Source: a virus (lineage: Duplodnaviria; Caudoviricetes). Taken from it: 62,627 nt of DNA. The notes beneath the pieces are model-generated. The model saw only the letters and a program-made list of their open reading frames with translations, searched no databases and was not told where the DNA came from. Positions 31,494 through 49,075 of the stretch are shown here, in pieces (within the stretch, counting starts at the first letter, position 1; every line of letters begins with the position of its first letter). The position numbers and the translations under genes were made by a program. The DNA is taken from the IMG/VR virus record IMGVR_UViG_3300025115_000633, positions 1 to 62,627 of that record; one strand, written 5' to 3'.

Positions 31494-32590
31494 TGTTTAT
31501 AGTCCCAATGGTGGAATTCAGATGGAAGGGTAAGGTTCTAACCAAAGAATCCTCTTTAATGTCTTTGACCTACACTGAAGGGGTGACGGGCAGCGCTACG
31601 TATTCGTTAAAAGTTCAATCTCATTGGGCTTTGTGGAATAATTTGATAAGGGATAAGGGTAAGACTCCCGGAGATTTGCGATGGGGGCAAATGATAGATG
31701 GCGTACCTTTTTGGAGTGTTTGGCACTCGGTGGTAGCCAACTCTCCGGATTTTGAATATTGGCCGACTTTGGTGTATGCAAATATTTCAGGCACATGCGC
31801 TGGCATCACCCTTAACGAACAGTGCTCTGAAAAAGCTTACAGTAAGATGACGATTTCTGATATCGTTTCAGAGATAGCACAACGGCATAAACTTGAACCC
31901 GACGTAACCCCCACCAAAGGAAAATATTCTTTTTATCAAGGGGCTTTTTCTGATACAGACTTCATATCTAATACTCTGATGAAATACGCTGTGTCTCAAG
32001 ACGGGCGTACCGATTTTCAATTCTACGTGAAAGATGGCAAAAAGTTGGTGTTCAAAGTACCAAGCTTGAAAGTAGAAAAGAAGATTGTGTTTATGACGCC
32101 TGATAGTGATGCCATAACTGCAACAGGGGTTAAGCTTTTTAGTAAGCGGATAAATGTCCCGTCGATGAGGAGCTGGTATACCAAATTACGATGTATCGAC
32201 TTGTGGGAAAAAGAGGTCATAAAATCGGAAGCTAAAGACGGGAAAAATAAAATACCTAAACTTGGCAAAACACCGCCTGAACCCCCGGCTAACCCTTCAG
32301 ATATCTATATTGTTACATCGCCACCCACAGAAATGTTCAGAAGATCAGATATAGATAATGCGGCAGAATCTTTGTGGGGAAGAAATTGTCGTTCTTTTTT
32401 TGTTGTCAAAGTGGAGACACTTTTTATCCCCAATATCGAACCTGGCGTGGTGGCGCATTTGAAAATGGCTGCCGTGAATGGTGTGGAACACCCGTTGACC
32501 GGCAAATACCTTATAACACAAGTCACCCACAAAATTAGGACGGAGAGGTTTTATTCGGTTCTGTGGCTTGAGAGGAGGGAGACGAATTGA
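31493..32590 (+). CDS. baseplate hub protein (gp27/GpD-like)
   Basis: ISDIVSEIA...YQ...SDTDFI...GKYLITQVTHKI; position before spike. Confidence 0.8.
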   Translation: MFIVPMVEFRWKGKVLTKESSLMSLTYTEGVTGSATYSLKVQSHWALWNNLIRDKGKTPGDLRWGQMIDGVPFWSVWHSVVANSPDFEYWPTLVYANISGTCAGITLNEQCSEKAYSKMTISDIVSEIAQRHKLEPDVTPTKGKYSFYQGAFSDTDFISNTLMKYAVSQDGRTDFQFYVKDGKKLVFKVPSLKVEKKIVFMTPDSDAITATGVKLFSKRINVPSMRSWYTKLRCIDLWEKEVIKSEAKDGKNKIPKLGKTPPEPPANPSDIYIVTSPPTEMFRRSDIDNAAESLWGRNCRSFFVVKVETLFIPNIEPGVVAHLKMAAVNGVEHPLTGKYLITQVTHKIRTERFYSVLWLERRETN

Positions 32591-33333
32591 ACCTGGGCGG
32601 AATATATAGGGCTACAGTGGTAGACAATGACGACACTCATTATAACGATGACCGTAACGTTGGGAGGATCAAGATTAAAGCTCCCCAGATTTATGGTGAT
32701 TTGAATGAGGATGAAATGCCTTGGGCTTGGCCGTGTTTCCTTCTTGCCGGCATCGAGAAGGTCGGAGAGATACGTTTGCCGAGAAAAGAATCACAGGTGT
32801 GGATAATGTTTGATTCCTGCGACATCCATCATCCTGTATGGATAGGTGGTTGTCACGGAAAAGAAGAGGTTCCGGATGAAGCTAAAGAGGATGATAATGA
32901 CCATAAGTACCCAGACATATTTCTGGTTAAGCCGTTTGCTGGGGATTCGTATATTCGCATATCCACATCTGAATCTGAAGAAGATAGTAGGATAGAAATA
33001 AAATGTGGGGATTCCCTGTTGTATATGGATACGATAAATAAAGAAATCGGGATAACCACAACCGATTGGAACGTGAAAATCGTCAGCGACTCAGGTAATC
33101 TGACATTGACCGGCAATGATGTTAAGCTGTCAGGTTCGACTTTGAATATGGAGTTTACGGGCGATAGTTCAATCACTTGTGGTCAGGAAACGGAAGTCAC
33201 TGACGAGAACGGAATTGTTAATTCTGAATGGTCTGGAACATTTACACTTACCGGGCAAGGTGAGATGAAATTGATTTCAGAGGGCGCTGTTCAATGCTCA
33301 GCCCCGTCCACCAGCGGGTTTGAGAAACATTGA
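32587..33333 (+). CDS. baseplate spike, gp5/GpV N-terminal OB-fold
   Basis: GIYRATVVDNDD...GRIKIKAP...WAWP...VWIMF...PVWIG followed by beta-strand repeats. Confidence 0.88.
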   Translation: MNLGGIYRATVVDNDDTHYNDDRNVGRIKIKAPQIYGDLNEDEMPWAWPCFLLAGIEKVGEIRLPRKESQVWIMFDSCDIHHPVWIGGCHGKEEVPDEAKEDDNDHKYPDIFLVKPFAGDSYIRISTSESEEDSRIEIKCGDSLLYMDTINKEIGITTTDWNVKIVSDSGNLTLTGNDVKLSGSTLNMEFTGDSSITCGQETEVTDENGIVNSEWSGTFTLTGQGEMKLISEGAVQCSAPSTSGFEKH

Positions 33334-33360: not shown

Positions 33361-33756
33361 ATGACAACCAGATGGAAAACCCCGTCCCTTCCATGGGCGG
33401 GTACACTGGACGACTTTTTCAGCGTTAAGGATGACATTGAGGTTTTGAGAACCAGCATCACATTTATTTTGCTTACCAGCTATGGCGAGAGGGTGATGCT
33501 TCCGACTTTTGGCTCCACTTTGTCGAGAGTGTTATTTGAGCCAAACAATACCTATACGGTGGACAGCTTAAAAGCATCTATTGTTGAGGCTATCAGAGCG
33601 TGGGACGATCGTATAGAAGTGATTGAAGTTAGTGCGACGAGCTTTAATGAGCAGTTGGACGTAGCTGTAACTTTCCGTAGCACGAAAGACCCGACGGCAA
33701 CAACTCAGACGGTAATGTTGCCGGTTAAACTTTCGTCGATTACCCATAACGATTAA
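33361..33756 (+). CDS. baseplate wedge gp25/GpW-like
   Basis: ILLTSYGERVMLPTFGS...LFEP...WDDRI. Confidence 0.92.
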   Translation: MTTRWKTPSLPWAGTLDDFFSVKDDIEVLRTSITFILLTSYGERVMLPTFGSTLSRVLFEPNNTYTVDSLKASIVEAIRAWDDRIEVIEVSATSFNEQLDVAVTFRSTKDPTATTQTVMLPVKLSSITHND

Positions 33757-33767
33757 GGAGTGTTCTG

Positions 33768-35762
33768 ATGGTTCAGAAGCCGGCAATTAATTACACGAAT
33801 GTGACTTATGAATCTATTCAAGCCGCAATAAAAGCTTGGATACAGGCTAAGTTTCCTGATACATGGTCGGATATGTACGAGAGTTCGATGGGCCAGGTTT
33901 GGGTTGAGGCAGTGGCTTATGCTTTTGACCAGTTGAACTTTGGGCTTAATTATGCGGCTAACGAGGTGTATCTTCCTTCGGCACGTGACCGCCAAAGCGT
34001 TATGGATATCGGGAAAGCTGTGGGTTATCAGATGCGGACAGCCACCGCCGCTTCTGTTAAATGCGCGGTATCTATAGCTTCGGTTCAGGCCAAGGATGTT
34101 GTTATTCCTCCTGGCGTTACGTTGACCGCAACATCTGGTGTCACTTTCAGGACGCTTGAACAGTGGTATATTCCAGCAGGCTCCCTCTCTGCCGAGATTT
34201 ACATGTCGGAAGGTGTTGCCCATTCAGACAGCTTTACTTCTGATGGTTCGTCCTTCCAGAAATTCAAATTGACCACCAACGAGGTTGTTCACGGCTCGAT
34301 AACCGCAAGCGTATCTGGTACGGAGTGGACGAAGGTTGATGGTTTGATAATGGCTGATTCCGCTACTCAGGCATATGAAATCGAGTATGACGTTGACGAT
34401 TATGGGTACGTCAAGTTCGGTGACGGAACAAACGGCATCGTGCCAGCTATGGGTGAACCTATAACTGTAAATTACAGAGTTGGCGGCGGGCTGGCAGGCA
34501 ATGTGGCGGTAGGAGAGATTAACCAGGTCGACAATAATAACTGTTATTTACGTGATATTCTACCTACAACGTATGTGGCGGTTACGTTTTATAATTCCGA
34601 AAGAGGTACAGGTGGTCTTGAGGCCGAGACGGTAGAACATGCGAAGATGGGAATACCTCACTGGACAAAGGCTGCTGGCAGGGCGGTGACGATTAATGAC
34701 TTCAACATTCTGGCAGTTCAGTTCAATGACCCTACGTATGGCAGCCCGGCGTTCGCCAGTGCAAAACTCAAATACATCATCCCTGAGTATAACATCGTTC
34801 AGATGTTTTTGTGGGCAAGAGATAACGGAGGGAACATTGTTGTTCCCAGCTCCGGTCTCAAAGATGCCATATTTGCGTATTTTATGAACGATGGAACAAA
34901 TTCAGTAAGGGTTGCGTGTACGGAGATGGAGGTGGAGGACGGTGGCATATTGAAAATCGACGTTAATGCCGAACTGACTGTCGATAGTGATTACTCCATA
35001 GCCACCGTCGAGGGCGACGTATCGACGGCCTTGAACAGCTTTTTCGACAGTACCGACGTTATACCTGGCTATGATATACGCCTCAGCCACGTCTACAGAA
35101 TCATTCAGGATGTATCGGGAGTTCTGCATACTCTCATCGTCAACGTTACGGCACACAGGGAGACCTCTGAGGTGCTGGCTGGAACATCGGGCACATTCGA
35201 CCTGCCGCCAGGACAACCCATAGCCCCCGGCTCTGTTGTGATTGCCGACGATTCAAACACTCTGACGGACGATAAAGATGGAAACCTGGTTGGTGATGGC
35301 TCTGGCACTATTGACTATGATACAGGAGCATACAGCTTTACTCTCACAGCTCCATCTGGAGACATCGTTGCTACGTATGGCATTATTGAAATGTACCAGA
35401 GAGGGAAGGCTGAACAGACGCTGGACGGGACAACCGAAACCATAAAAGGCGTTCTTCAGTATCCGCCGGTCATCCCGATAGACCCAGTATCTGGGGCTAA
35501 TGGTATAGCTTTTGCTGTTGCTGACCGTGTTGTGGTAGATGATGGCAATGGCAATCTGGTCGGCGACGTTAATCCGTTGGGTGTGAACCGCATAGATTAC
35601 GATACAGGGGCGTATGAGTTCACCCTGTCCACATTGCCGGCCAACGGTTCTATTTTGTACTCGACGTATAAACAGCTTCTCAGGGTAAATGCCGAAGATA
35701 TTCCCATTGATGCCTCCGATATGCCGGTAAAGGGTACGTGGACGTTCTCCTCTTCTAGCTGA
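33768..35762 (+). CDS. baseplate wedge gp6/GpJ-like
   Basis: INYTNVTYESI...ANEVYLPSARDR, FGDGTNGIVP, RAVTINDF. Confidence 0.9.
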   Translation: MVQKPAINYTNVTYESIQAAIKAWIQAKFPDTWSDMYESSMGQVWVEAVAYAFDQLNFGLNYAANEVYLPSARDRQSVMDIGKAVGYQMRTATAASVKCAVSIASVQAKDVVIPPGVTLTATSGVTFRTLEQWYIPAGSLSAEIYMSEGVAHSDSFTSDGSSFQKFKLTTNEVVHGSITASVSGTEWTKVDGLIMADSATQAYEIEYDVDDYGYVKFGDGTNGIVPAMGEPITVNYRVGGGLAGNVAVGEINQVDNNNCYLRDILPTTYVAVTFYNSERGTGGLEAETVEHAKMGIPHWTKAAGRAVTINDFNILAVQFNDPTYGSPAFASAKLKYIIPEYNIVQMFLWARDNGGNIVVPSSGLKDAIFAYFMNDGTNSVRVACTEMEVEDGGILKIDVNAELTVDSDYSIATVEGDVSTALNSFFDSTDVIPGYDIRLSHVYRIIQDVSGVLHTLIVNVTAHRETSEVLAGTSGTFDLPPGQPIAPGSVVIADDSNTLTDDKDGNLVGDGSGTIDYDTGAYSFTLTAPSGDIVATYGIIEMYQRGKAEQTLDGTTETIKGVLQYPPVIPIDPVSGANGIAFAVADRVVVDDGNGNLVGDVNPLGVNRIDYDTGAYEFTLSTLPANGSILYSTYKQLLRVNAEDIPIDASDMPVKGTWTFSSSS

Positions 35763-35769
35763 GATCGTT

Positions 35770-36705
35770 ATGAGCTATTCGTTCTACGAATTGCTGCCTG
35801 CAATAATTAAGCTCAGAGACGCTATATCCTCTGGGCAGGAAAGTGACACCCTGCTCCAGAAGATTTTTTACATGCTTGACCAGGAGGCTGATTGGGCTGA
35901 CGGCAAGATCAACACCATCTATGACCTTATTGACCCCAACGACTGTCCGGAAGAGTATCTTCCTATGCTTGCCACGTTGGTCGATTTCCCTTTGCAGGGC
36001 GGTTGGACTGAAGATAAGAAGCGGATGGCAATACTGGGTGCGGTCAAGCTTTATTGCAGAAAGGGTGTTGTTGCGAGTTGGCGGGCTGTCCTCGCTATGT
36101 TCGGGCACCCCGAGATGGATATTCAGGAACTTTATAAAAATGAAATCCATCCCGTCGACGGCTACTCGACCGAGAAAGACTATTTCGATTTCCCTGCCGC
36201 CAGAATTGATTTGACGGAATACGGCTCTACGATACTGCCGCCGGATACCGATCCCGTTTGGCAGGGTATTGAATTAATGCGCCCGATACATGTTCTTGTC
36301 CGTAGAGATTTGGTTAAAGATGAAACCCAAGATGCCATATCCGCTTCGGACTCCACCGAGGCTGGCTCTTTCTCCAAAATAACAGATTGTGCCGGCATGT
36401 TATCCGATGGGGATGTCACCCTTCCTGGCGAAGAGTGTCAGGTGGGCTTGCAGATTTCCTCATACGCCTGCACTAACTTCTCTTGTGAAGCTACCAGTTG
36501 TGAAACCTTTTGTGAAGGGTCGTGTGAGAGCATTTGCGAAACTGAATGCGAAACCTCATGCCAGATCGGTTGCGAGAACGTGTGCCAGACGTTTTGTGAA
36601 GGAGAATGTGAAAGTTTTTGTGAGGGTACATGTACGGTTTCATGCCAGGTGTGGTGCCAGCTATATTGCCAACAAAATTGTCAATATAAGGTGCAGTCTA
36701 CATGA
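35770..36705 (+). CDS. baseplate wedge protein (P2 gpI/gp7-like) with C-terminal Cys-X-X-X repeat tail
   Basis: FYELLPAI...DPNDCPEEYLPMLA...YCRKG...MRPIH gpI-like domain; CXXX tract at C-terminus. Confidence 0.85.
   Translation: MSYSFYELLPAIIKLRDAISSGQESDTLLQKIFYMLDQEADWADGKINTIYDLIDPNDCPEEYLPMLATLVDFPLQGGWTEDKKRMAILGAVKLYCRKGVVASWRAVLAMFGHPEMDIQELYKNEIHPVDGYSTEKDYFDFPAARIDLTEYGSTILPPDTDPVWQGIELMRPIHVLVRRDLVKDETQDAISASDSTEAGSFSKITDCAGMLSDGDVTLPGEECQVGLQISSYACTNFSCEATSCETFCEGSCESICETECETSCQIGCENVCQTFCEGECESFCEGTCTVSCQVWCQLYCQQNCQYKVQST
36499..36690 (+). repeat. 16 consecutive CXXX peptide units (C-[E/Q]-x-x in 15 of 16)
   Basis: CETF CEGS CESI CETE CETS CQIG CENV CQTF CEGE CESF CEGT CTVS CQVW CQLY CQQN CQYK. 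Confidence 0.95.
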
Positions 36706-37400
36706 GCAAGGTTTTAGGTTTCTTTGATGTAGCGTATGTGATTAATCTCGATCACCGACCAGACAGAATGGAAAATGTGACTAGAGAGATGCAGAAAGTG
36801 GGCATAGATTTTGTGAGGGTGCCGGGTGTGGAATATGTCGGCGACGGCAAAGATTTGCCTGATGCCCCCGGCTATGAAACGCCGGACAAGAAATGCAGGG
36901 CTTTGGGTTGCAGTCTTGGGCACAGGCGGGCGGTGCAGATGGCTAAGGCTTCAGGAGCATCAAACTGCCTGATTTTTGAGGATGATGTAACTTTCATCCA
37001 GGGATTTGCGAAAGAGGCTTCTGCCGCCTTGAGGGAGTTAAGATGGGTGGATTGGGAATTGTTCTATTTTTACAGCGACCCTCACCTTGTCCCTCCATTA
37101 TCTGTCGGGATAACTGAACATTTGCGGATTCTTCCTGGAACTTGTTGCTGCCATGCGTATGCACTTAACAAGAGGGCGATTGATTATTTTTTGGGGGAGT
37201 TCAATCCTCCTTATAATGGGATGATTGTCGATTATTTCACCAAGAGTGCTCCACTTGTTAAAGTGGCCACGAAAGTAAATCTTGCTTTTCAGGCGAGTGG
37301 ATTCTCTGATATCAAACATGAGTATGTGGTCAATAGTCCTGGCAAACCTCATGTGTGCGTTAAAACGAAAGAAGAATACGAGGCGTTGATTAAAGCATGA
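36702..37400 (+). CDS. glycosyltransferase family 25
   Basis: YVINLDHRPDR, LGCSLGH, LIFEDD, HAY. Confidence 0.9.
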   Translation: MSKVLGFFDVAYVINLDHRPDRMENVTREMQKVGIDFVRVPGVEYVGDGKDLPDAPGYETPDKKCRALGCSLGHRRAVQMAKASGASNCLIFEDDVTFIQGFAKEASAALRELRWVDWELFYFYSDPHLVPPLSVGITEHLRILPGTCCCHAYALNKRAIDYFLGEFNPPYNGMIVDYFTKSAPLVKVATKVNLAFQASGFSDIKHEYVVNSPGKPHVCVKTKEEYEALIKA

Positions 37401-39127
37401 GTGATACTGGGTTTTATTTTTATAATCTGCTGCCTTGGATTGTCAGACTGAACGACCAGATTGCCGCAGGGTCTGATACTAATACTACGTTACAGGGCAT
37501 ATTTTCGATATTAGACCTTCAGGCGGATTGGGCTGATGAAGAGGTTCTCGGTATATACAACTTGATGAACGCTGAGGTGTGTGACGCCGAGTTCCTTCTT
37601 TATCTGTCAGCCACTCTGGGCACCGCTGTCACCACAGATATCTCGCCAATTTTCCGCCGTTGGTTTGTACGCAATCTTGTGAAATTTCATAAGATAAAAG
37701 GCACCCACATGTCGTGGGATAAGCAGTGGTTATGGCTAACTGAGAACGCTTACGGGGCAACTGAGCTATGGAAGGGGCAAATTCATGAGGTGGGCGACTA
37801 TGAGCAGTCAGAAGATCCTAACCATCAGTTAAATTCGGCGAGGTTTGACGTTTATAGTTCTGATGGTTCAACGTATCTTGTTCCCTCTGAAGCTCAGCTA
37901 TATGTCAATAAAATAGATGACCTTAGACCTGTACATGTTCTCCTTCGTTATTGGTATTTGGCTGGCGGAATTGATGATTATTTTGCCCCTGTGCTTGAAG
38001 AGCCAATATTTAATGCTCAGGCTAATTTTGAAGACTCGGCTCAGAACTTGTCCGATTATGTGACCACAAGAGTGGTATGTATTGGCTCTTCGGTGGTTTG
38101 TCAGAGTGGTTGTGAAAGTTTATGTGAAGATTGGTGTCAAACGGGTTGTGAAACCATATGCGAACACTTCTGCGAGATAGATAGTTGCCAGATAAGATGC
38201 ATGTTTTCTAGCGAGGGCAACCAGCAGTGCCAGACAACGTGTATGATTTTAACCGAACCGGCATGCCAAACAAGTTGTGTATTCTCAGCTGTAATGAATC
38301 AAATATGTTATGCCAGTTGCCAATTGGCAATTCAACCTTGGTGTCATACGAGTTGCGTAGGTGCACTTGAGCCCTTCTGCCAGACATCCTGTACGGTTTG
38401 TAATTGTGAAAGTTATGCTTTTTGCCAGACATCATGTATTGGTTTAACTCAAGCTGCATGCCAAACAATGAATATGATGTCAGTTGGTCCTTACCCAAGA
38501 CCTCCTTGGTGGCCACCGGCGAATGAAAGTATCCCCGATTGGCTTTGGAATCGTCCTGGTGGTGATCCCTGTCTTACTTCTCAAACATTGACAATACGAC
38601 CGCCGTGGTTTCCACCACCGGGTGACCCTTGTTTCACTTCTCAAACATTTCCTCCTCTACCCCCAACGTCCCCATGTCCTACACATTGTGAATTCGTCTT
38701 TGAAGGCGGTGGTGTAATTTGGTCTCCCACAGGTCGATTTTATTGTTATAATGATCCGTTTGGTGACAGTCCCACACCTGTACCGCATATTTTTGGTGGA
38801 GACGGCTATATAGAAATGCGGTATAATGGAATTCTTAAAGGACTATCCGTAACAACCAATTTTACAAATCATTTTAGCCCTAAGTTAATTAGCGTCTCGT
38901 TTTCGGCTAATAAAGAAGGAACAACTTTAACTGGAGCCCCAACAACTGGGGATATTAGTGTACCTCTTAGTGGTATTTACCACGCTATAAATAATTCAGA
39001 TGGCACCGCCGTTGTATCAAAAGGCGATCTCATTGGCTTATCAGCAAGTTGCAGATATGAAGGTGGTGGAGCAGGCAGTGTTTGGGGCAATGTTGATGTG
39101 ACTTTTGATATTGAGGTTACGAGTTAA
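37397..39127 (+). CDS. second gpI/gp7-like baseplate protein with Cys-rich repeats, Pro-rich linker and C-terminal beta domain
   Basis: FYNLLPWI...CDAEFLLYLS...HKIKGT...RPVH, paralogous to 35770; CxxxC tract with three CQTSC. Confidence 0.85.
   Translation: MSDTGFYFYNLLPWIVRLNDQIAAGSDTNTTLQGIFSILDLQADWADEEVLGIYNLMNAEVCDAEFLLYLSATLGTAVTTDISPIFRRWFVRNLVKFHKIKGTHMSWDKQWLWLTENAYGATELWKGQIHEVGDYEQSEDPNHQLNSARFDVYSSDGSTYLVPSEAQLYVNKIDDLRPVHVLLRYWYLAGGIDDYFAPVLEEPIFNAQANFEDSAQNLSDYVTTRVVCIGSSVVCQSGCESLCEDWCQTGCETICEHFCEIDSCQIRCMFSSEGNQQCQTTCMILTEPACQTSCVFSAVMNQICYASCQLAIQPWCHTSCVGALEPFCQTSCTVCNCESYAFCQTSCIGLTQAACQTMNMMSVGPYPRPPWWPPANESIPDWLWNRPGGDPCLTSQTLTIRPPWFPPPGDPCFTSQTFPPLPPTSPCPTHCEFVFEGGGVIWSPTGRFYCYNDPFGDSPTPVPHIFGGDGYIEMRYNGILKGLSVTTNFTNHFSPKLISVSFSANKEGTTLTGAPTTGDISVPLSGIYHAINNSDGTAVVSKGDLIGLSASCRYEGGGAGSVWGNVDVTFDIEVTS
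38078..38470 (+). repeat. Cys-rich tract: CXXX run then spaced CxxxC pairs (CQTTC, CQTSC x3, CYASC, CHTSC)
   Basis: Read from the translation. Confidence 0.9.
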
Positions 39128-39192: not shown

Positions 39193-40602
39193 ATGAAGCA
39201 GTTGACAGAGGGGTGCTCACTGAGGAACTCAGCCGTCTGTGAGCCGAAAACTTTGGATTTTGAAATCGAGGGGCGTAAGTTTTCCTATGATTGCAATTCA
39301 ATGAAATTGTTCCAACTCGAAGAGGGAGAGAGCATTACTGGGGCAGATCGTGTACCCCAGTTCCCTTTCACGTCATGGTTTGGCGTTTCTGCAATGGTGC
39401 TGGAAGCCACCCACGCCTGCCATAATGCTTGCCGCTATTGCTTTGTTGACCTGAAATACGATGACCATGTCCACACGATGAAGCTGGACACGGCTTTACG
39501 GGCTATAACCTACTTTTTCCCCAGACCGGAAAAGGGGTTTAATCCTCGGGTTAAAGCCCCCCATATCGGGTTCTTCGGCGGAGAGCCGTTACTCAACTGG
39601 CCACTAATTGATGGGGTGACGGGGTTCTTAAGGGGGTATTGCCACCCTATACGCCCGTCGTTGGGTATGACCACGTCTGCCGTTCTAATGACAGAAGAAC
39701 GAGCTAAATACCTCACCGATCACGGATATTCCTTTATCGTCTCGTTGGACGGACCCAAAGATATTCATGATGCCTTTCGCCCGCATAAAGATGGAGACGG
39801 AACGTATGACAGGGCTATTCAGGGCATTAAATACCTGAACGACGCCGGCACCAGGAACATTACCCTGAGAGGCACGTTCACCGCAGACTGCGTGAGATTG
39901 CTGGACAGGGTCGTTCACCTCAACGAACTTTGTGACGTGGGGATGGGCAACTGGGCGTCCGTGGAGCCAGCAGACCTCTCTGAACACGCCTGCGTCAAGG
40001 CTGGACCGGGGATGGTGTTCACCCCCGAAACCGTGAGGGCTTTGGAATCTGAATATATGGCGTGTGCCAAATGGTTTGTTGAGAGGGTTAAAAATGGAAA
40101 GAAAGTCAGATTTCATCAGCTGTATAAAACGGTGGAGCGATTGCTCTACGGGTTTGCTTCCCCCAATGAGTGTGGGGCTGGCAGGGCATATATTGGTATC
40201 GGACCAACAGGTTCTATTCATGCATGCCACAGAGAGAACAACTCCTACATTGGTCACATGGACAAGGGGTGGATTGACGAAGCCCTCCGTGCTAAATGGG
40301 TGGATAACAGAGGCATTTACACTAGACCTAAGTGCGTAGCCTGCCCTATACGCTTTGTTTGTGGGAGTGGGTGCAGGGAGTCGTCTCTTGGGGATTCTGG
40401 GGATATAACTATACCTAACGTCATTTCTTGCGAGTTTTGGAAGCTGTTTTTCAAGGCTGCGGTATGGGTGGTGTCTGAGGTGGATAAGGCAACATTGATG
40501 ACTGCCATACCTATGCCTCAAGGGTTGTGCCGACCCAAGATTGGGCAATGTAAAGGCTGTGTAGATAAAGGAGAGCCTGTTGAAGGTAGCCCTGCTCCGT
40601 GA
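39193..40602 (+). CDS. radical SAM/SPASM-domain peptide maturase (CteB/PapB/QhpD-like thioether-forming class)
   Basis: CHNACRYC, FFGGEPLL, VSLDGP...HD..R, RGTFT, CGAG...GSIHACH, CVAC...CGSGC...C SPASM cysteines; N-terminal FSYDCNSM RRE-like strands. Confidence 0.93.
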   Translation: MKQLTEGCSLRNSAVCEPKTLDFEIEGRKFSYDCNSMKLFQLEEGESITGADRVPQFPFTSWFGVSAMVLEATHACHNACRYCFVDLKYDDHVHTMKLDTALRAITYFFPRPEKGFNPRVKAPHIGFFGGEPLLNWPLIDGVTGFLRGYCHPIRPSLGMTTSAVLMTEERAKYLTDHGYSFIVSLDGPKDIHDAFRPHKDGDGTYDRAIQGIKYLNDAGTRNITLRGTFTADCVRLLDRVVHLNELCDVGMGNWASVEPADLSEHACVKAGPGMVFTPETVRALESEYMACAKWFVERVKNGKKVRFHQLYKTVERLLYGFASPNECGAGRAYIGIGPTGSIHACHRENNSYIGHMDKGWIDEALRAKWVDNRGIYTRPKCVACPIRFVCGSGCRESSLGDSGDITIPNVISCEFWKLFFKAAVWVVSEVDKATLMTAIPMPQGLCRPKIGQCKGCVDKGEPVEGSPAP

Positions 40603-41530
40603 GTCCGGAGGCTATGGTGATATAATAACCATGTCCGCTGCCGGGCAGTCAGTAAAAGCCAGGATGGGTGCAGATGTCCATGTTGAGGCGTTTGTACCTA
40701 AAGATTTCGAGCAGGCGGCAGATCATCTTGTGGGCATTGATTCTGTGGTGGCATTGAACCCTCCGCCAATACATAGTAGGAGAAGACGCGATACTTATTT
40801 GGATGTTCATCAGCACCCATATCTCAGAACGGTATTTGAGGCTAAGCCCGATAAGATAGTTGATTTGTTTTGCCCTGGTTTTCTTTATGAAGAGACGACA
40901 CGTGATGAAATTCTGTACAGCAGGGCACAACTTTTCGCTATGGCTGCCGGCGGTCTTGATGTGTCGAAGGTTGCACCTATTTGGCAAATTGAGCCGTGGG
41001 AAGCAGATAATGCAGAGTATATGATGAAAACTCTGAAGCTGGAGGATGGGTTTATAGGTGTTGCTTTGCGAGGGACATGCAGTTGCAGAACTTTTCCTGC
41101 GGATAAGTGCCAGGAGCTTTTGATGGGGATAAAGAAAATGGGGTTTCAGATAGGGCTTTTGGATTGCGTACATCCTAAATATTCTTTACCCTCTGGCTCT
41201 GTAAGGATAGTCGGGTTTGATATTCCGACCGTGGCGGCCATACTAACTAAAGCGAGGTTGCTGATCACCGTAGATACAGGAATGTTGCATTTAAGTCAGG
41301 CAGTGGGCACGAAATTTATAACAATTTTCGGTCCCACGACAACTGCTATAGTAAATACTTATGATAACTGTGTGGGTAAAGTTGTAAATCCGGGAACCAA
41401 ATGCTCTGTACCATGCAATTACAGAAGGATGCTTGGGTGGAACAGTGAAGTTTGTAGGAAGACGGGGTGCGATAGAATGTTATCGGTTGAGGTGCAGCAG
41501 GTGCTTTCAACCTTTAAGGAGGCATTATGA
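40580..41530 (+). CDS. glycosyltransferase family 9
   Basis: GGYGDII start; ITVDTGMLHLSQAVG...IFGPT; C-terminal Cys cluster. Confidence 0.88.
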   Translation: MKVALLRESGGYGDIITMSAAGQSVKARMGADVHVEAFVPKDFEQAADHLVGIDSVVALNPPPIHSRRRRDTYLDVHQHPYLRTVFEAKPDKIVDLFCPGFLYEETTRDEILYSRAQLFAMAAGGLDVSKVAPIWQIEPWEADNAEYMMKTLKLEDGFIGVALRGTCSCRTFPADKCQELLMGIKKMGFQIGLLDCVHPKYSLPSGSVRIVGFDIPTVAAILTKARLLITVDTGMLHLSQAVGTKFITIFGPTTTAIVNTYDNCVGKVVNPGTKCSVPCNYRRMLGWNSEVCRKTGCDRMLSVEVQQVLSTFKEAL

Positions 41531-42396
41531 GTTGCATGATATGCGTTTTCTCATATGAACGTTATGGACATTTGAAATTGTGCCTTCATTATCTTTCTAA
41601 GGCTATAGAGGGTATGGATTTCAAAGTAGTGGTTATGGATGATGGGAGCAAAGACGAGCGTATTCCTGGAATGTTGCACCAAAAGGTGGTGTCCAATGAA
41701 ATAGCCAGATTTATGACCAGTACTAATCCACGAACAGAGGATACCCAATCAAATAAAGCCGCCCGTATTGGGCTTCAGCGTCAGGCTGCGGTTGAGTATT
41801 TTCTTACTATCGGGACAGAACCGTATCTTTTTCTCATGGATGATGATATCATTCTAGGCAAAGGTGTTATACAGGAGGCCGTAGCTGATTTCGAGATGAT
41901 GAGGAATATAACGGACGCTAATCCTGGAGGGTTGTCGCTTCACGCAATGTTTGCCCATGATGGTTATAGATATTTTGGTCAGAATATTTTTTGCGAATGT
42001 AGATTCTCTGGCGAAGCCAATATGCTTCTGAGCAGGGACGGGCTACAGAAAACAGGGAACAAATTTAACGACCAGAAAAGTGGATTTGGGGATACGCAAA
42101 TTAAAGCTATACGGGATGCTGGCTTGAGATATTACACCCGCGTTCGTCCTCCTTATGCTGTTCAACATATAGGGATAGGGCTTGGCGGTTCAGTTATTCA
42201 TGCGGGGGTTGTTCGTCAGCCGAAATGGACATGCCACCCATATAGACATCTCTTCAAAGAAGACCAGGGCAAGCTTGTGTGTGTGCCGGGCTTTAACATA
42301 ATCAGATACACGGAGCTTCTGGGGCAGGTGGATCCTTCTCAGGCTCCTTTGGTTTATCTTGATAGGATTAAGGAGTTATCCAATGGAAGCGAGTAA
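41527..42396 (+). CDS. glycosyltransferase family 2-like
   Basis: VFSYER, VVMDDGSKD, LMDDD, VQHIG. Confidence 0.82.
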   Translation: MSCMICVFSYERYGHLKLCLHYLSKAIEGMDFKVVVMDDGSKDERIPGMLHQKVVSNEIARFMTSTNPRTEDTQSNKAARIGLQRQAAVEYFLTIGTEPYLFLMDDDIILGKGVIQEAVADFEMMRNITDANPGGLSLHAMFAHDGYRYFGQNIFCECRFSGEANMLLSRDGLQKTGNKFNDQKSGFGDTQIKAIRDAGLRYYTRVRPPYAVQHIGIGLGGSVIHAGVVRQPKWTCHPYRHLFKEDQGKLVCVPGFNIIRYTELLGQVDPSQAPLVYLDRIKELSNGSE

Positions 42397-42889
42397 ATTC
42401 TTTGAGCATGTCTCTGAGCCGAAAGGTGCTTTCCGTTTAGAGGCAGTAGGCAAGGGCGGTGAACGGAAAGTGTTGGTTGACATCAATAATTTGATAGTCA
42501 AAAATTTTGCCACCCAGTGCTCATATCTCCTGGCAGGCGATGGGCTGAACGACAGATATATTAACCGTATAGGTTATGGTGTGGGCACGTCTGAGCCTTC
42601 GGTAGACGATTATGAGCTTACACGGTATGTACCTTATGGCGAGGAAGAGGGGGATCCGTATATCGCTGTGGCTACTGTGGACGATGTTCAGTTCCCCACG
42701 ACGTACAGCGTGAGGTTCCGGGCGACGGTGGAGGCTCCCGATTTTAACGGCGTGGAGTGGAGTGAAGCTGGGCTTATGACAGCTAACACTAGTCCTTATT
42801 TAATGTCTAGAGTAACTTTCCCGCCGCAGATGAAGTCCGAGTATTGGTCTTGGACGGCTGCGTGGACGATATATTGGATCCCAGCATAA
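42383..42889 (+). CDS. tail-collar/fibre-attachment domain protein
   Basis: NNLIV...IGYGVGT...WSEAGL...SRVTF...WTI pattern; AAGGAG SD before ATG 42383. Confidence 0.7.
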   Translation: MEASKFFEHVSEPKGAFRLEAVGKGGERKVLVDINNLIVKNFATQCSYLLAGDGLNDRYINRIGYGVGTSEPSVDDYELTRYVPYGEEEGDPYIAVATVDDVQFPTTYSVRFRATVEAPDFNGVEWSEAGLMTANTSPYLMSRVTFPPQMKSEYWSWTAAWTIYWIPA

Positions 42890-42899
42890 GGAGTGAAAA

Positions 42900-43346
42900 A
42901 TGAAGGGTTTAGTTGAAATTCAGAAAATGAACAGGGACGGTGAGGTTGTTGATGAACGGAAGATAACTAATCTGGTGGTTTCAGGAGCATACGTCAATCT
43001 AGCCCGCCTGCTGGCAGGTCCGGAGCATAATCTTAACCGTGAAATCACCCAGATGCAGTTTGGGACGGGAAGCATGTCGCCGGCAATCACCGACACTCGT
43101 CTTCAGCTACCAATTACCCCCGTTAAGACGATTCAGTCGGTGGACATATTTTATGCAGAGTTTTCAGTAAGCTTCAGGGCATTCTTGCTTGCAGAAGAAG
43201 GCAATGGGTTCTCTATATCGGAAGCTGGGCTGATAACCGATTCAAGAGTCCTGATTGCTAGATGCGGGTTCTCCGGTTTAGAGAAGACTTCAGACTATAT
43301 TCTAGGGTTTACCTGGACTATTGTAACTGGCGAGTTCGATTACTAA
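42900..43346 (+). CDS. tail-collar/fibre-attachment domain protein (paralog)
   Basis: TNLVV...MQFGTG...ISEAGL...IARCGF...WTI. Confidence 0.7.
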   Translation: MKGLVEIQKMNRDGEVVDERKITNLVVSGAYVNLARLLAGPEHNLNREITQMQFGTGSMSPAITDTRLQLPITPVKTIQSVDIFYAEFSVSFRAFLLAEEGNGFSISEAGLITDSRVLIARCGFSGLEKTSDYILGFTWTIVTGEFDY

Positions 43347-45092: not shown

Positions 45093-45698
45093 ATGAAAAC
45101 TAATTTGTCTCCTGAAACCATTACCGAAATGTATACGCAATTCGAGGCTATGATGTGGTCATATACGGAGAAAGCGTGGACGGCTGTCCGTAAACCTTGC
45201 TATTATAGTAAGGAAGACCTCTTTCAGGAAGCGAACATCATATTCATGGAAGCGGTGAAGAAGTACATGCCCTCAAAGGGCTCGTTCTCCACCCTTCTTT
45301 CTCGCAAGCTGCATAATCGGTTTGCGTGGATTGTGGTGAAAAGTTACGGATATAATGATCTCAATCCCGCCGAATTGACTGGACAGGAGGTAGAAATTAG
45401 GGGGCGCACGTCCCCTGAATACTCAAAGGAAATAACCATAGAGGATATTAACCTTGTGGGCAGTATTTCTGCTGAGGCTAGGGAGTTAATTAATCTCGTG
45501 CTCTCTCCTCCGACTGACCTGCTCGAAATGATGCTCCAGCATGAGGCGAAGGCGGATGCTGAGGTTACAAAAACAGGCAACCGTGCAAAGGCAACGCAAA
45601 AACATCGGCTGAGTCCAGTGTTGAGAGAATATATGGGGCTTACGCCTCGTCAGTATACGCATTTACGTAAAGAGATTCTCGCAAAAGTGGCTGTGTGA
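45093..45698 (+). CDS. RNA polymerase sigma-factor-like protein
   Basis: EDLFQEANIIFMEAVKKY.PSKGSFSTLL, region 2 pattern. Confidence 0.75.
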   Translation: MKTNLSPETITEMYTQFEAMMWSYTEKAWTAVRKPCYYSKEDLFQEANIIFMEAVKKYMPSKGSFSTLLSRKLHNRFAWIVVKSYGYNDLNPAELTGQEVEIRGRTSPEYSKEITIEDINLVGSISAEARELINLVLSPPTDLLEMMLQHEAKADAEVTKTGNRAKATQKHRLSPVLREYMGLTPRQYTHLRKEILAKVAV

Positions 45699-46198: not shown

Positions 46199-46473
46199 CC
46201 GAACCAGAAAGAATAGGTTACAACATCGGAATTTTGGTTGCCGAGAAATTGCCAGATAAATACATGGTGAGCAAAGACAGGTTTATCCTGGCGGCAAAAG
46301 AACTAGAATGCAAAATGGCAGGGGATGGACAGCTACCGAGTGAGTATAACTGCAATCGTTTATTAGGTACAAATGTAAAGGCTACCCAATATTTCAAAGG
46401 TATGGAAGACGGTATCGCTGAGGTGTGGAAAAGGAAATCCGATGCTGCCAAGCAAAAAAAACCTACTGTTTGA
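46195..46473 (+). CDS. hypothetical protein
   Basis: GGAGG SD; ATGA overlap. Confidence 0.6.
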   Translation: MTEPERIGYNIGILVAEKLPDKYMVSKDRFILAAKELECKMAGDGQLPSEYNCNRLLGTNVKATQYFKGMEDGIAEVWKRKSDAAKQKKPTV

Positions 46474-49075
46474 GTTGGAAGAACCTAAAGACGGAGCGAC
46501 CGAAGAGCCAAAGAAGGAAGTTAAGAAGCGGAAGCCGAAAGTGGCAGAGCTGCCGCCTAACACTCCTGAAGGCATAACGGAAGAGTGTGTCAAGTGTTTA
46601 GCTTATCCTTGCTGCAATTCCCCTTTCATGAATCCTTATGGTAAAAATGAGCTGGGGGTAGTTTTGGTAGGGGATTGTCCTAGTGCCGAGGATGACAGAC
46701 GTGGCAGGCCATTTATGGGGAATGACGGGGAAGAGTTGTCGCTTATTTTACGGTCAATGGGTCTCGATGTGGGCAGGGACTTCCTGCGGCTTAATGTAAT
46801 GCAGTGTTTTCCTGCTAACGGGGAATTCAAGAAAGTTTCGGCGAATAAATGTAAGCATCGTTGGCATAAACAAATATTAGACTCGAAACCTCAACTCATA
46901 ATAATGCTGGGTGGCGATGCCTGGAAGTTGGTGGGCGACCCGCCATTACCTCTTAGCGGACATCCTCCAAACATCACAAGTGTCAGAGGACGGGTATTTC
47001 CTTTACGGCAATATGGGTGTTGGGGTTTAGCTACGTTGCATCCGCGAGAAATATTCAAATCTTTAGATAATAAACGTGATCCTAATTTGCATAAAGAGAT
47101 TACGGATTTGGTGACAAAAGACTTATGGCGAGGTTTTGAACATCTTGGAAAACCCTTGCCGGAACTTCCTAACCCAAAAGACTATATGGTTATGCGGACA
47201 GTAGAAGAAGTTCTGAACTTAGAAAAAGCGTTGTTTGACGACGATAGGCCTGTTAGTGTCGATTATGAAACTAATCAGGCTGACCCTTATGGACCTAATC
47301 CTCCTCAGATTCTATTTCTTTCTGTGGCGATAATGGGGGCAGAACATTTTTCTTTTATTATACCTCTTGACCACAAAGAGCATACGTGGTTGCCTGAAGA
47401 ACGTCTTGAGGTTGTTCGAATTATTACACGGATAATGAGCAAAGAGAAAAAAAAGATTGTCCAGAACGTTAGTTTTGAGATGATGTGGACGGAGATCTAT
47501 TTTGGTGTCCCGTTTGAAAATTACATATATGATACAATGTTGGGTGCCCATGTTATCGATAGCCGTAAAGGAACGACAAGCCTGGCTTTTCAGGTATTTG
47601 AACTTAATGGAGACAAATATAAGGAAAAAGTTGACAGGCTGAACCTTGCTGATACGTCACTTGAAGTTGCGGCAGAATACGGGGGGTTGGATGCCCGATA
47701 TCCTTTAATGCTGACTCAGGCACATGAACAAAAAATGGAGGCCGAGCCTTTTATTAAGGAGGGGTATAAACTTTGTCATGATTCAATCCGAACACTTACT
47801 GAAATGGAAATGACCGGCATTCGTGCTGATCGGGAGGCTTTGCAGGAGCTTAAAGAGGATTGTGCCAAAGAAATTCAGGCTATCGAAGAATGGGTTTATG
47901 GCTCTGAGCCCTTTCAAAAATATATATCTTTAACAGGAAAAACCCCCAATTTCGCGCATGTGTGTGTCAATAAGGTTTTGTTCGACATAATGAACCTCCC
48001 AAAATCGAAACGTACAACCAGAGCTGGAAATCCTGAAGTCGGGCAGGACGCTCTAGCTGAAATGGCAAATGAGATGAAGCCAGACACATTTGAGTGGGAG
48101 CTGGTTAAAAAGATTGCCAGAGGTTCACGCCTTACCAAACTGATGTCTAATTTTATTCAACGGTTTGAAGCATCTATCCACCCAGATGGCCGGTTTCATC
48201 CTGGTTTTCTAATGCATGTTGTGGAAACATACCGTAGTAGTTCGACGAATCCGAGTTTTCATAACCTGCCAAAACATGACCCCTATACGTTGAAGTTCAG
48301 GAAAGTGATAGCCGCTGATCCAGGGTATTTGCTCGTTTCTGGCGACTTTTCAGCGGCAGAAGTGCGGTGTCTTGCGATGAGAAGCAAAGACCCCACGCTG
48401 GTGAAATACATGAAAACCGGCTATGACATGCATAAAGAATGGGCTGCAAAAGGGTTAAAGTTGCCTCTTGACCAGATTAAAAAGGAACTGAGGCAGATAT
48501 TCAAGAATAAGCTCGTTTTTCCTTGGTATTACGGGGCGACGGTAGGCACAGTGTTGCGGGGCTTAAGGGATGGGGCGGTCGAGTTATCAGATATTTCAGG
48601 AATGGCTACTGAGATTCAACGCCTTCGCACCATAACCTACGAGGAAGTTTTGCAGATGGAGAAGTTGTTTTGGCGGGAGTTTGCGGGTGTGCACAAGTGG
48701 CAAAAAAAGGTGTGGACAGAATACAAAGCTACCGGATATGCTGAGCTGGCTTCGGGGTTTAGACGACGAGGTCCACTTGAGTATAACGAATTGATTTCTA
48801 CGGTTATTCAGGGTCCTACTTTCCATATAGTTCTAAAAGGGTTATGCGAGACCCGTAATCGATTGGTGGACGAAAAGCTTAAAGCTAAGCCCGTTATAGA
48901 GGTTCATGACGATGGTTTGTTTCTCGTTCCCGAGGATGAAGTATCTAAATTTTTAAGTATTGCTGATGAAGAATTTACGAAAAAGCGGTACGATTGGCAG
49001 GGGGATGTGCCTATGAACGTGAAATGGGGAAAGGGTAAAAATTGGTATGAAATGGAAGATATTGAACTTTCTTGA
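46442..49075 (+). CDS. polA: family A DNA polymerase with N-terminal family-4 uracil-DNA glycosylase-like domain and 3'-5' exonuclease
   Basis: VGDCPSAEDDRRGRPFMG and TLHP (UDG4); VDYET, YDTML, YGGLDA (exo); GDFSAAEVR, RQIFKNKLVFPWYYG, VHDD (pol motifs A/B/C). Confidence 0.93.
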   Translation: MLPSKKNLLFELEEPKDGATEEPKKEVKKRKPKVAELPPNTPEGITEECVKCLAYPCCNSPFMNPYGKNELGVVLVGDCPSAEDDRRGRPFMGNDGEELSLILRSMGLDVGRDFLRLNVMQCFPANGEFKKVSANKCKHRWHKQILDSKPQLIIMLGGDAWKLVGDPPLPLSGHPPNITSVRGRVFPLRQYGCWGLATLHPREIFKSLDNKRDPNLHKEITDLVTKDLWRGFEHLGKPLPELPNPKDYMVMRTVEEVLNLEKALFDDDRPVSVDYETNQADPYGPNPPQILFLSVAIMGAEHFSFIIPLDHKEHTWLPEERLEVVRIITRIMSKEKKKIVQNVSFEMMWTEIYFGVPFENYIYDTMLGAHVIDSRKGTTSLAFQVFELNGDKYKEKVDRLNLADTSLEVAAEYGGLDARYPLMLTQAHEQKMEAEPFIKEGYKLCHDSIRTLTEMEMTGIRADREALQELKEDCAKEIQAIEEWVYGSEPFQKYISLTGKTPNFAHVCVNKVLFDIMNLPKSKRTTRAGNPEVGQDALAEMANEMKPDTFEWELVKKIARGSRLTKLMSNFIQRFEASIHPDGRFHPGFLMHVVETYRSSSTNPSFHNLPKHDPYTLKFRKVIAADPGYLLVSGDFSAAEVRCLAMRSKDPTLVKYMKTGYDMHKEWAAKGLKLPLDQIKKELRQIFKNKLVFPWYYGATVGTVLRGLRDGAVELSDISGMATEIQRLRTITYEEVLQMEKLFWREFAGVHKWQKKVWTEYKATGYAELASGFRRRGPLEYNELISTVIQGPTFHIVLKGLCETRNRLVDEKLKAKPVIEVHDDGLFLVPEDEVSKFLSIADEEFTKKRYDWQGDVPMNVKWGKGKNWYEMEDIELS

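Follow-up and report, generated by a model that had tools for sequence, protein, structure and literature searches.

We analysed a tail gene block in a 62,627-nt stretch of viral DNA (IMG/VR record IMGVR_UViG_3300025115_000633, Caudoviricetes; hereafter the window), in which a predicted baseplate protein, termed ladder protein 1, ends in a ladder of cysteines placed at every fourth residue. A paralogue, ladder protein 2, is encoded further downstream, and is followed by a gene for a radical S-adenosylmethionine (SAM)/SPASM enzyme, a candidate maturase of the ladder. The enzyme gene lies 0.7-2.5 kb downstream of the ladders (2.5 kb from the tract of ladder protein 1). The elements on which the analysis turns are the following:

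35770..36705, plus strand: ladder protein 1, 311 aa, in which residues 1-180 form a gpI-type domain, followed by an acidic linker rich in Ser/Thr and, at the C-terminus, the Cys ladder
36436..36696, plus strand: whole Cys-rich segment of ladder protein 1 (C223-Q309, 19 Cys)
36499..36690, plus strand: tract of 16 CXXX units reported in an earlier note on this sequence
37397..39127, plus strand: ladder protein 2, 576 aa, a paralogue that aligns with ladder protein 1 and its relatives
38078..38461, plus strand: Cys-rich stretch of ladder protein 2, from C228 to C355, in which a 7-unit run occupies 38099-38182
39193..40602, plus strand: radical SAM/SPASM enzyme, 469 aa, the proposed maturase (Pfam Radical_SAM)

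The earlier note had described the tract as 16 uninterrupted CXXX units that do not form a DNA tandem repeat, and this description stands. On translation, the units fill residues 244-307 of the 311-aa open reading frame (ORF), and read CETF, CEGS, CESI, CETE, CETS, CQIG, CENV, CQTF, CEGE, CESF and CEGT, followed, as units 12-16, by CTVS, CQVW, CQLY, CQQN and CQYK; the residue right after Cys is thus E in nine units, Q in six and T in one. The Cys codons are evenly mixed (8 TGT and 8 TGC), and, compared pairwise, the 12-nt units have a mean identity of 0.49. Tandem Repeats Finder detected no array over the tract, its sole row between 36300 and 38700 being a 22-nt array of a 7-mer (38311-38332). 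In a six-frame translation of the whole window, just two runs of at least five CXXX units were found, the tract itself and the 7-unit run of the paralogue. When the C-terminal 90 residues were shuffled 100,000 times at constant composition, no run of 16 units arose, the longest having 9. When 49 relatives (25-38% identity) were aligned, the ladder's Cys columns proved either invariant or conserved to at least 90%, in contrast to the variable X positions. Because the codons are mixed, there is no DNA repeat, the shuffles fall short and the Cys columns are conserved, selection acts on the peptide pattern, as the earlier note had argued, and the tract is a real, non-random, selected feature.

The ladder belongs to a large family. 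A HMMER search with ladder protein 1 against 1.84 billion cluster representatives retrieved 291 proteins at E≤0.001, and 111 of the 153 proteins taken from this search had at least five CxxxC units, with up to 166 Cys. A Pfam scan of 36 of the 111 (32 of at least 590 aa and 4 short ones) left 30 without a match; the remainder matched Phage-tail_3, laminin-G, FG-GAP or Ig-like/carboxypeptidase-regulatory families, one of them only a sub-threshold DUF445. Elsewhere among phages, ladders form part of 600-2000-aa proteins that also have Ig-like, laminin-G or phage-tail domains. A shift from Glu to Gln towards the C-terminus, also claimed earlier, is present in ladder protein 1 (nine E and two Q in units 1-11; T, Q, Q, Q and Q in units 12-16) but not across the 111 family proteins, where E/Q counts by ladder thirds are flat (575/472, 551/518 and 496/464). 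The shift is, therefore, a peculiarity of ladder protein 1 and no family trait.

Other searches returned little. Neither tblastn of ladder protein 1 against 50,697 phage records nor scans of viral contigs with the ladder protein or the enzyme alone gave any match or relative, and searches of a protein atlas gave structure matches below a template modelling (TM) score of 0.45 and no usable match by features. The same tblastn search with the enzyme found 24 records, at less than 33% identity, mostly unannotated gut contigs.

To find further ladders by their pattern, IMG/VR was scanned with a degenerate DNA pattern that encodes (C[EQ]xx)5C, which gave at least 124 loci (L-numbers below label viral loci). 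The identity of the 12-nt units splits the listed loci cleanly into 19 loci (17 records) at 0.64 or less, comparable to the tract of ladder protein 1 (0.49), and 105 loci at 0.77 or more. The 105 high-identity loci are nothing more than DNA tandem repeats, and many of their frames are tiny or interrupted by stops. They include giant-virus bins among the matches listed, with frames such as CQRQ, CESS, CEPT and CECE. As most listed matches to the pattern are DNA repeats, with 12-nt or shorter units, searches for Cys ladders by peptide pattern need a DNA-repeat filter.

The two groups of loci differ sharply in their neighbours. A profile was built from nine ladder-linked enzymes and run on the ORFs of the listed loci. 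Among the matches listed, it matched ORFs at 10 of the 19 genuine ladder loci and at none of the 105 repeat loci (967 kb in all; 70 loci of at least 4 kb). A search of whole records (for the genuine loci with 300-base flanks, plus L066, L019 and L002) found the enzyme in 3/4 and 3/5, i.e. in 6/9. Overall, a radical SAM/SPASM gene lies about 0.1-2.2 kb from the ladder in 15 of the 17 genuine-ladder records other than the window, among the matches listed. The two records without the enzyme, L019 and L084/85, are contigs ending at the ladder, and L002, which was found by homology, ends inside its ladder protein, before any enzyme is visible. In all 8 other ladder-linked enzymes scanned the best match was PapB, at 56-259 bits.

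The carriers of the ladder vary from phage to phage. A gpI-like carrier is found in the window, L074, L066, L085 and L002; the carrier of L015 has Ig-like domains and is encoded beside Baseplate_J, Mu gp48 and a collagen/Mtd fibre; L036 has a 1260-aa protein, and in L019 the ladder gene is beside a tape-measure gene. L074 shares the gene order of the window: two ladder proteins, the enzyme, glycosyltransferases of families 9 and 2 (GT9, GT2) and two phrog_5417 ORFs. Since the carriers differ while the enzyme recurs, the pairing is conserved across unrelated tail gene blocks, which is the main argument that the ladder is, very probably, the substrate of the enzyme.

We then asked which Cys would go with which Glu or Gln, counting residues in the 111 ladder proteins (50%-identity representatives, 308 runs). 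Of 2911 interior Cys, 2630 have E or Q right after them, as do 275 of 308 Cys that end a run, but just 171 of 308 (56%) that start one; in relatives found by homology, E or Q directly follows Cys in 55 of 65 CxxxC units. D and N together account for 7 of the 2911 interior after-Cys positions, E, Q and some T being accepted. In the 143 runs whose last Cys has no further Cys at +2 to +5, E or Q is at +5 in 119, and at +2 to +4 and +6 to +9 in only 3-15%. Irregular gaps gave the same result. With 8 residues between two Cys, E or Q is at +5 from the first, donor Cys in 112 of 129 cases and after the second Cys in only 33; the corresponding counts are 51 versus 13 of 77 for gap 7 and 45 versus 9 of 68 for gap 9. 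With gap 5, E or Q moves to +6 (282/328). The pattern-found proteins replicate these counts among the matches listed (gap 8, 13 versus 4 of 17; gap 9, 22 versus 2 of 27; run ends, 21/28). In ladder protein 1, 18 of the 19 Cys (C223-C304) have E or Q at +5, or at +6 if Cys itself occupies +5; the sole exception, C284, has T at +5, and the last Cys, C304, is followed by QYKVQ, which places Q309 at +5.

Because both run ends and irregular gaps track the upstream Cys, the conserved unit is C-X4-(E/Q), with Cys N-terminal. In a regular ladder, the putative acceptor merely happens to be the residue that follows the next Cys. The earlier note had taken the Glu or Gln at +1 as the partner of the Cys preceding it, and here the counts point elsewhere, as the conserved E/Q tracks the Cys five residues upstream. 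Indeed, a bond from each Cys to its own +1 residue is disfavoured by the relaxed first Cys (56%), by the extra E/Q at +5 past the last Cys and by the loss of the +1 E/Q from the next Cys after an 8-residue gap. We also considered the opposite, acceptor-first register, (E/Q)-x-x-C, suggested by ladder protein 2, and rejected it: E or Q at -3 without Cys at -4 was found in 28 of 246 cases, near the 7% background, and E or Q at -3 of a run's first Cys in only 54 of 176. An autocatalytic Cys-Gln thioester is found in adhesin domains of Gram-positive bacteria. Such a bond was rejected for the ladder, given that E is as common as Q and that the ladder is linked to an enzyme.

The enzyme itself resembles maturases that make thioethers. 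Its best NCBIfam matches, near full length, are QhpD (156.1 bits), not_ScfB, an ScfB-related orphan (156 bits), ScfB (153.6 bits) and PapB (146.3 bits), in contrast to 71 bits for the anaerobic sulfatase maturase model and 50 bits for TIGR04463. The best solved relative is CteB (5wgg), by sequence (E 1.9e-40) as well as by fold (E 9.4e-25, TM 0.72, 460 columns), and the second-best fold match is an anaerobic sulfatase maturase (E 3.9e-16). The CX3CX2C motif is formed by C76, C80 and C83, invariant among the 9 aligned ladder-linked enzymes. All seven Cys of the SPASM region (327, 345, 381, 384, 390, 394 and 413) align to Cys of CteB, and five of them (C327, C381, C384, C390 and C394) are invariant in the 9-enzyme alignment. 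As these family matches stay below their cut-offs, the enzyme is placed as a relative of the PapB/QhpD/ScfB thioether clade, and not as a member of any one family. Its N-terminus has a small three-strand sheet (residues 20-42) predicted confidently (at a predicted local distance difference test score, pLDDT, of ~90), in which a complete peptide-recognition domain (RRE) is not recognisable; residues 1-70 had no Pfam match at E≤10. A predicted complex of the enzyme with residues 200-311 of ladder protein 1 scored 0.00 against a mark of 0.32, and was used neither way.

In the 172-kb phage record of L066, the ladder-linked radical SAM gene (70327-72453, minus strand) is in a single open frame of 851 aa, which matches the enzyme profile in three separate pieces (profile positions 3-255, 243-319 and 313-358). 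This suggests a frame with inserted segments, which may be inteins or extra domains.

The carrier of the 16-unit tract appears to be a structural protein of the virion. The remaining genes of the block are:

32587..33333, plus strand: baseplate spike/hub OB-fold protein of P2 gpV type, at the start of the baseplate block (Pfam Phage_base_V, 46.7 bits against a cut-off of 23.8)
33361..33756, plus strand: baseplate wedge protein of gpW/gp25 type (Pfam GPW_gp25, 52.7 bits; PHROG baseplate wedge subunit)
33768..35762, plus strand: baseplate wedge protein of gpJ type, 664 aa (Pfam Baseplate_J, 24.5 bits against 21.1; phrog_219, E 4.7e-41)
36702..37400, plus strand: family 25 glycosyltransferase (GT25), between both ladder genes (Pfam Glyco_transf_25, 37.3 against 24; phrog_2835 glucosyltransferase)
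40580..41530, plus strand: family 9 (heptosyltransferase-like) glycosyltransferase (Pfam Glyco_transf_9, 43.9 against 22; L074 homologue at 202 bits, beside the maturase)
41527..42396, plus strand: family 2-like glycosyltransferase (Pfam Glycos_transf_2, 21.7 against 23.3, sub-threshold; L074 homologue at 152 bits)
42359..43346, plus strand: two paralogous phrog_5417 ORFs of unknown function, at the end of the block conserved with L074

The N-terminal 180 residues of ladder protein 1 match Tail_P2_I (PF09684; 43.4 bits against a cut-off of 20.6) and TIGR01634 (34.4 against 30.05). AlphaFold2 predicted this domain at pLDDT above 86, and all four Foldseek matches of the model at E≤0.001 are baseplate chains (9gtp_A, 9euk_D, 9gb2_M and 8kea_c), the next ones being pyocin R2 (6u5b_0) and Mu (9ki1_b). 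The predicted fold resembles wedge subunits from a Streptomyces contractile injection system and from phi812, phiCD508, cyanophage A-1(L), pyocin R2, P1 and Mu. The genes are ordered gpV-gpW-gpJ-gpI, with those for a tail sheath, a major head protein and a head protease upstream; ladder protein 1 starts 8 nt past the gpJ stop, and its own stop overlaps the start of the next gene. By profile, predicted fold and gene order, the ladder carrier is a P2 gpI-type baseplate wedge protein of a contractile-tailed phage, and of a large one, as CheckV estimates the window at ~27% of the genome. It differs from P2 gpI and Mu gp48-type wedge proteins, whose matched solved chains mostly have 150-190 residues, in an added linker and ladder of ~130 residues and in the duplication of the gpI-type gene. 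The duplicate, ladder protein 2, consists of a gpI-like N-domain (17.9 bits with Tail_P2_I, under the cut-off of 20.6), the 7-unit ladder, irregular CQxxC pairs, a Pro-rich segment and, at the C-terminus, a domain whose 209 aa had no Pfam match.

A gpI-like carrier of another build was seen in L002 (10714-13203), where the gpI-like protein runs through a short Cys ladder into hundreds of residues of collagen-like GPT/GPQ triplets, broken by small Cys-containing globular inserts. The ladder of L002 is at the junction of the baseplate-binding domain and a fibre, the latter presumably trimeric.

Taken together, we put at roughly 0.6 the probability that the enzyme installs overlapping Cys-to-Glu/Gln thioether rings in a baseplate wedge protein of the virion. 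The enzyme would cleave SAM reductively, and the resulting radical would take a side-chain hydrogen from Glu or Gln. The Cys five residues upstream would then capture the carbon radical with its sulfur, which may be held on an auxiliary cluster. The bridge to the E/Q five residues on is proposed because characterised thioether substrates place the donor Cys upstream at a fixed short distance. Acceptance of E, Q and T, together with exclusion of D and N, suggests, from what is generally known of such chemistry, the gamma carbon as the attachment point. The product would be ~18 thioether bridges of ranthionine type along the ladder, in six-residue rings that overlap by two residues, ring k spanning i to i+5 and ring k+1 spanning i+4 to i+9. 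Such a product would make a covalently stapled rod at the baseplate periphery, without need for disulfides or metal, and ladder protein 2 would be a second substrate. A thioether from Cys to a side chain is the probable product, and the i to i+5 topology has about even odds. That phages of several lineages turn a tail or baseplate Cys ladder into continuous overlapping six-residue thioether macrocycles, from 16 to more than 100 per protein and each joining Cys i to Glu/Gln i+5, is a more tentative generalization, which we hold somewhat less likely than its opposite.

The earlier note's proposal, in which the radical SAM enzyme encoded nearby joins the sulfur of Cys to side chains of Glu/Gln, thus gains indirect support, from the relatives of the enzyme, from the linkage of ladder and enzyme (15/17 versus 0/105 among the matches listed) and from the near absence of D and N (7/2911). 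The note's placing of these bonds along one helical face, however, is not supported, since AlphaFold2 drew helices in the ladder only at pLDDT 41-66. In an alpha-helix, moreover, a period of 4.0 drifts by ~40 degrees per unit, and residues i and i+5 are ~140 degrees apart. Bridges from i to i+5 would, therefore, not fit a regular alpha-helix.

Several observations weigh against the thioether reading. The same AlphaFold2 helices, modelled for an unmodified chain, amount to no confident structure of the ladder. The enzyme is far below the curated cut-offs (QhpD, 156.1 against 453; ScfB, 153.6 against 425; PapB, 146.3 against 340), so that it is no member of a characterised equivalog family and may work by a different chemistry. 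Of the 27 Cys of ladder protein 2, only 16 have E or Q at +5/+6. Its residues 278-355 (window 38230-38461) contain CQxxC pairs placed 7-9 residues apart, in which the first Cys has Q next to it and no E/Q at +5, while the second Cys has one; these pairs leave an orphan Cys and an orphan Gln that C-X4-E/Q does not explain. A non-covalent fold with a contact between i and i+5 would leave the same statistical trace. The 111 proteins were retrieved with ladder protein 1 as the query, which biases their overall composition, although this bias should spare the first-versus-last-Cys and gap statistics. Finally, with ~27% of the genome in the window, partners encoded elsewhere are unseen.

It is unlikely that the enzyme acts on the ladder by some other chemistry, i.e. 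forms sactionines (sulfur to alpha-carbon), converts Cys to formylglycine in the manner of anaerobic sulfatase maturases or bridges Cys to a partner other than the +5 residue. The position of the enzyme beneath every curated cut-off leaves room for this, as do the rank of an anaerobic sulfatase maturase as second-best fold match (E 3.9e-16), the greater sequence closeness of some sactisynthases to ranthisynthases than to other sactisynthases (PMC10288494, in the part available) and the disputed acceptor of CteA, Thr37 in vitro versus Thr34 in cells (PMC8172795, likewise in part). The thioether families, however, score 146-156 bits with the enzyme, against 71 for the sulfatase maturase, and a tight directional E/Q at +5, with D and N excluded, has no role in such reactions. 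Sulfatases are modified at the motif C/S-x-P/A-x-R. This motif is absent from the ladder. Alternatively, the ladder may be a structural or metal-binding module, with disulfides or thiolate-metal bonds at an oligomer junction, the enzyme serving some other purpose of the tail block. In L002 the ladder is between the gpI-like domain and collagen-like repeats, a fitting site for Cys knots that stabilise a trimer; Cys-rich proteins commonly bind metals (PMC13692751, in part), and the glycosyltransferases of the block show that neighbours need not all act on the ladder. Yet the linkage of 15/17 versus 0/105 among the matches listed is hard to explain without a functional tie. The residue preference, with E and Q interchangeable and D, N and H rare, is wrong for metal ligands, and an offset of one acceptor per Cys is unneeded for disulfides. 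We regard such a module as quite unlikely.

A further possibility, which we consider highly improbable, is that the ladder serves as the core of a peptide natural product, being cut from the gpI-like carrier after modification and released. The layout of an N-terminal domain and a C-terminal Cys-rich core does resemble that of leader and core (PMC13692751, in the part available), and the N-terminal three-strand element of the window, L074 and L021 enzymes could bind a leader. The carrier, however, is a confidently folded baseplate wedge domain in gpV-gpW-gpJ-gpI order, and family scans of the neighbours detected no protease or exporter in the gene block; release is unlikely on both grounds. 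The ladders that other phages embed in 600-2000-aa proteins with Ig-like, laminin-G or phage-tail domains also argue against it.

Thioether bridges of the proposed kind have precedents, which we take here and below from those parts of the cited papers that were available. PapA contains Cys-X3-Asp/Glu six times (PMC9413430), and QhpC has Cys-Glu and Cys-Asp bridges inside a protein subunit (PMC8172795). For Tte1186a and CteA the bridge was assigned as Cys32-Thr37 in vitro and as Cys32-Thr34 in cells (PMC8172795). The window enzyme shares the radical SAM core and the seven-Cys SPASM region with PapB (freyrasin, from PapA), CteB (the SCIFF peptide CteA, thermocellin) and QhpD (QhpC), and the ladder shares with the substrates of these enzymes the repeated Cys and a side-chain acceptor a fixed few residues downstream. 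There are also clear differences. The enzyme scores less than half of the PapB, ScfB and QhpD family cut-offs. Ranthipeptide substrates are short peptides with a leader, whereas the window substrate would be a 311-aa virion structural protein. Here the putative acceptors, E/Q with D nearly absent, come after an X4 spacing, in contrast to the Asp that PapA uses. The rings predicted for window-type ladders overlap along 16 to more than 100 units, in contrast to the six separate rings of PapA. Lastly, an N-terminal extension, the expected site of a leader-binding domain, is missing from 6 of the 9 aligned ladder-linked enzymes, which sets them apart from ranthipeptide maturases.

A precedent at the scale of a protein is CrpA of Methanococcus voltae, for which ranthionine thioether bridges were shown experimentally in 2026 (PMC13692751). 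In CrpA, Cys is always before the acceptor, and C-X-X-Q/D motifs were noted (PMC13692751). CrpC/CrpA and the window system are alike in the SPASM enzyme, the thioethers of ranthionine type (here predicted), the Cys-rich repeats, the order of Cys and acceptor and the consideration of Gln (PMC13692751). CrpA, however, is cellular, archaeal and unrelated to virions, and has a 17-residue repeat in place of the 4-residue repeat of the ladder (PMC13692751). CrpC belongs to TIGR04463, a model with which the window enzyme scores only 50 bits.

Cys at every fourth residue beside a radical SAM/SPASM enzyme is also the hallmark of a catalogued CXXX-repeat system, made up of a target repeat (TIGR04114/PF27846), a target protein (TIGR04117), the maturases TIGR04115 and TIGR04119 and an associated protein (TIGR04116). 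To our knowledge, this system is a database prediction without a characterised product. PF27846, a modification-target Cys-rich repeat, is precomputed on ladder protein 1. The window maturase, however, is not TIGR04115 (the 'CXXX-repeat target' maturase), which it matches in its N-terminal half only, at 59.8 bits against a cut-off of 350. TIGR04114, TIGR04116 and TIGR04119 had no match at E≤1 in the window (a record ~27% complete), and NCBIfam gave none for the ladder alone.

CXXX repeats as predicted radical SAM targets are, thus, already catalogued in databases. What is distinctive here is the fusion of the ladder to a baseplate wedge protein, the PapB/QhpD/ScfB-like maturase and the C-X4-E/Q register that predicts overlapping rings. 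In the available parts of the literature searched, no paper links a radical SAM enzyme to cross-linking of phage tail proteins (PMC12801897 and PMC2853527 concern other matters), although Supplemental Data set 1 of PMC13692751, which covers radical-SAM-associated Cys-rich proteins of all domains, might hold phage examples. If the thioether reading is right, enzymatic radical chemistry would be part of the assembly of a virus particle, with a structural tail protein stapled before or during assembly. The stapling could explain thin, rigid phage appendages that resist reduction and proteases without disulfides. A 'poly-ranthionine' covalent rod would be an architecture not described for any virion or natural product. 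The maturases, most of the aligned ones lacking an N-terminal extension, would act processively on a whole protein. C-X4-E/Q would be a simple motif for many consecutive thioether staples, and the cluster representatives found with ladder protein 1 (291 at E≤0.001) would add a large and diverse set of substrates.

Glycosyltransferases are encoded beside the ladder/enzyme pair in 3 of the 11 loci with scanned neighbours. They are of GT25, GT9 and GT2-like types in the window, GT9 and GT2 in L074 (2081-3949) and of GT1 type in L021 (7185-8216). As the X positions of the ladder are Ser/Thr-rich, these enzymes might conceivably glycosylate the ladder proteins; they might just as well modify sugars of the host surface. 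L074 (5405-5863) and L021 (9559-10014) also encode, between the ladder gene and the maturase, proteins of 152-153 aa with 10-11 Cys in CxxC-type pairs, for which there was no family match and no counterpart in the window.

In L079 (1135-6101), two different radical SAM genes come after that of a 50-Cys ladder protein: one is PapB-like, and the other is nearest to models of ACGX/tungsten-cofactor maturases. The ladder protein is preceded by a reverse transcriptase gene, possibly a sign that a diversity-generating retroelement acts on the tail genes; an Mtd_N/collagen fibre is encoded near the ladder of L015. Directly downstream of the tail block of the window, 45093-45698 has a match to sigma-70 region 2, and may encode a phage sigma factor. 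A single 877-aa ORF (46442-49075) encodes a family A DNA polymerase with an N-terminal domain of the uracil-DNA-glycosylase superfamily.

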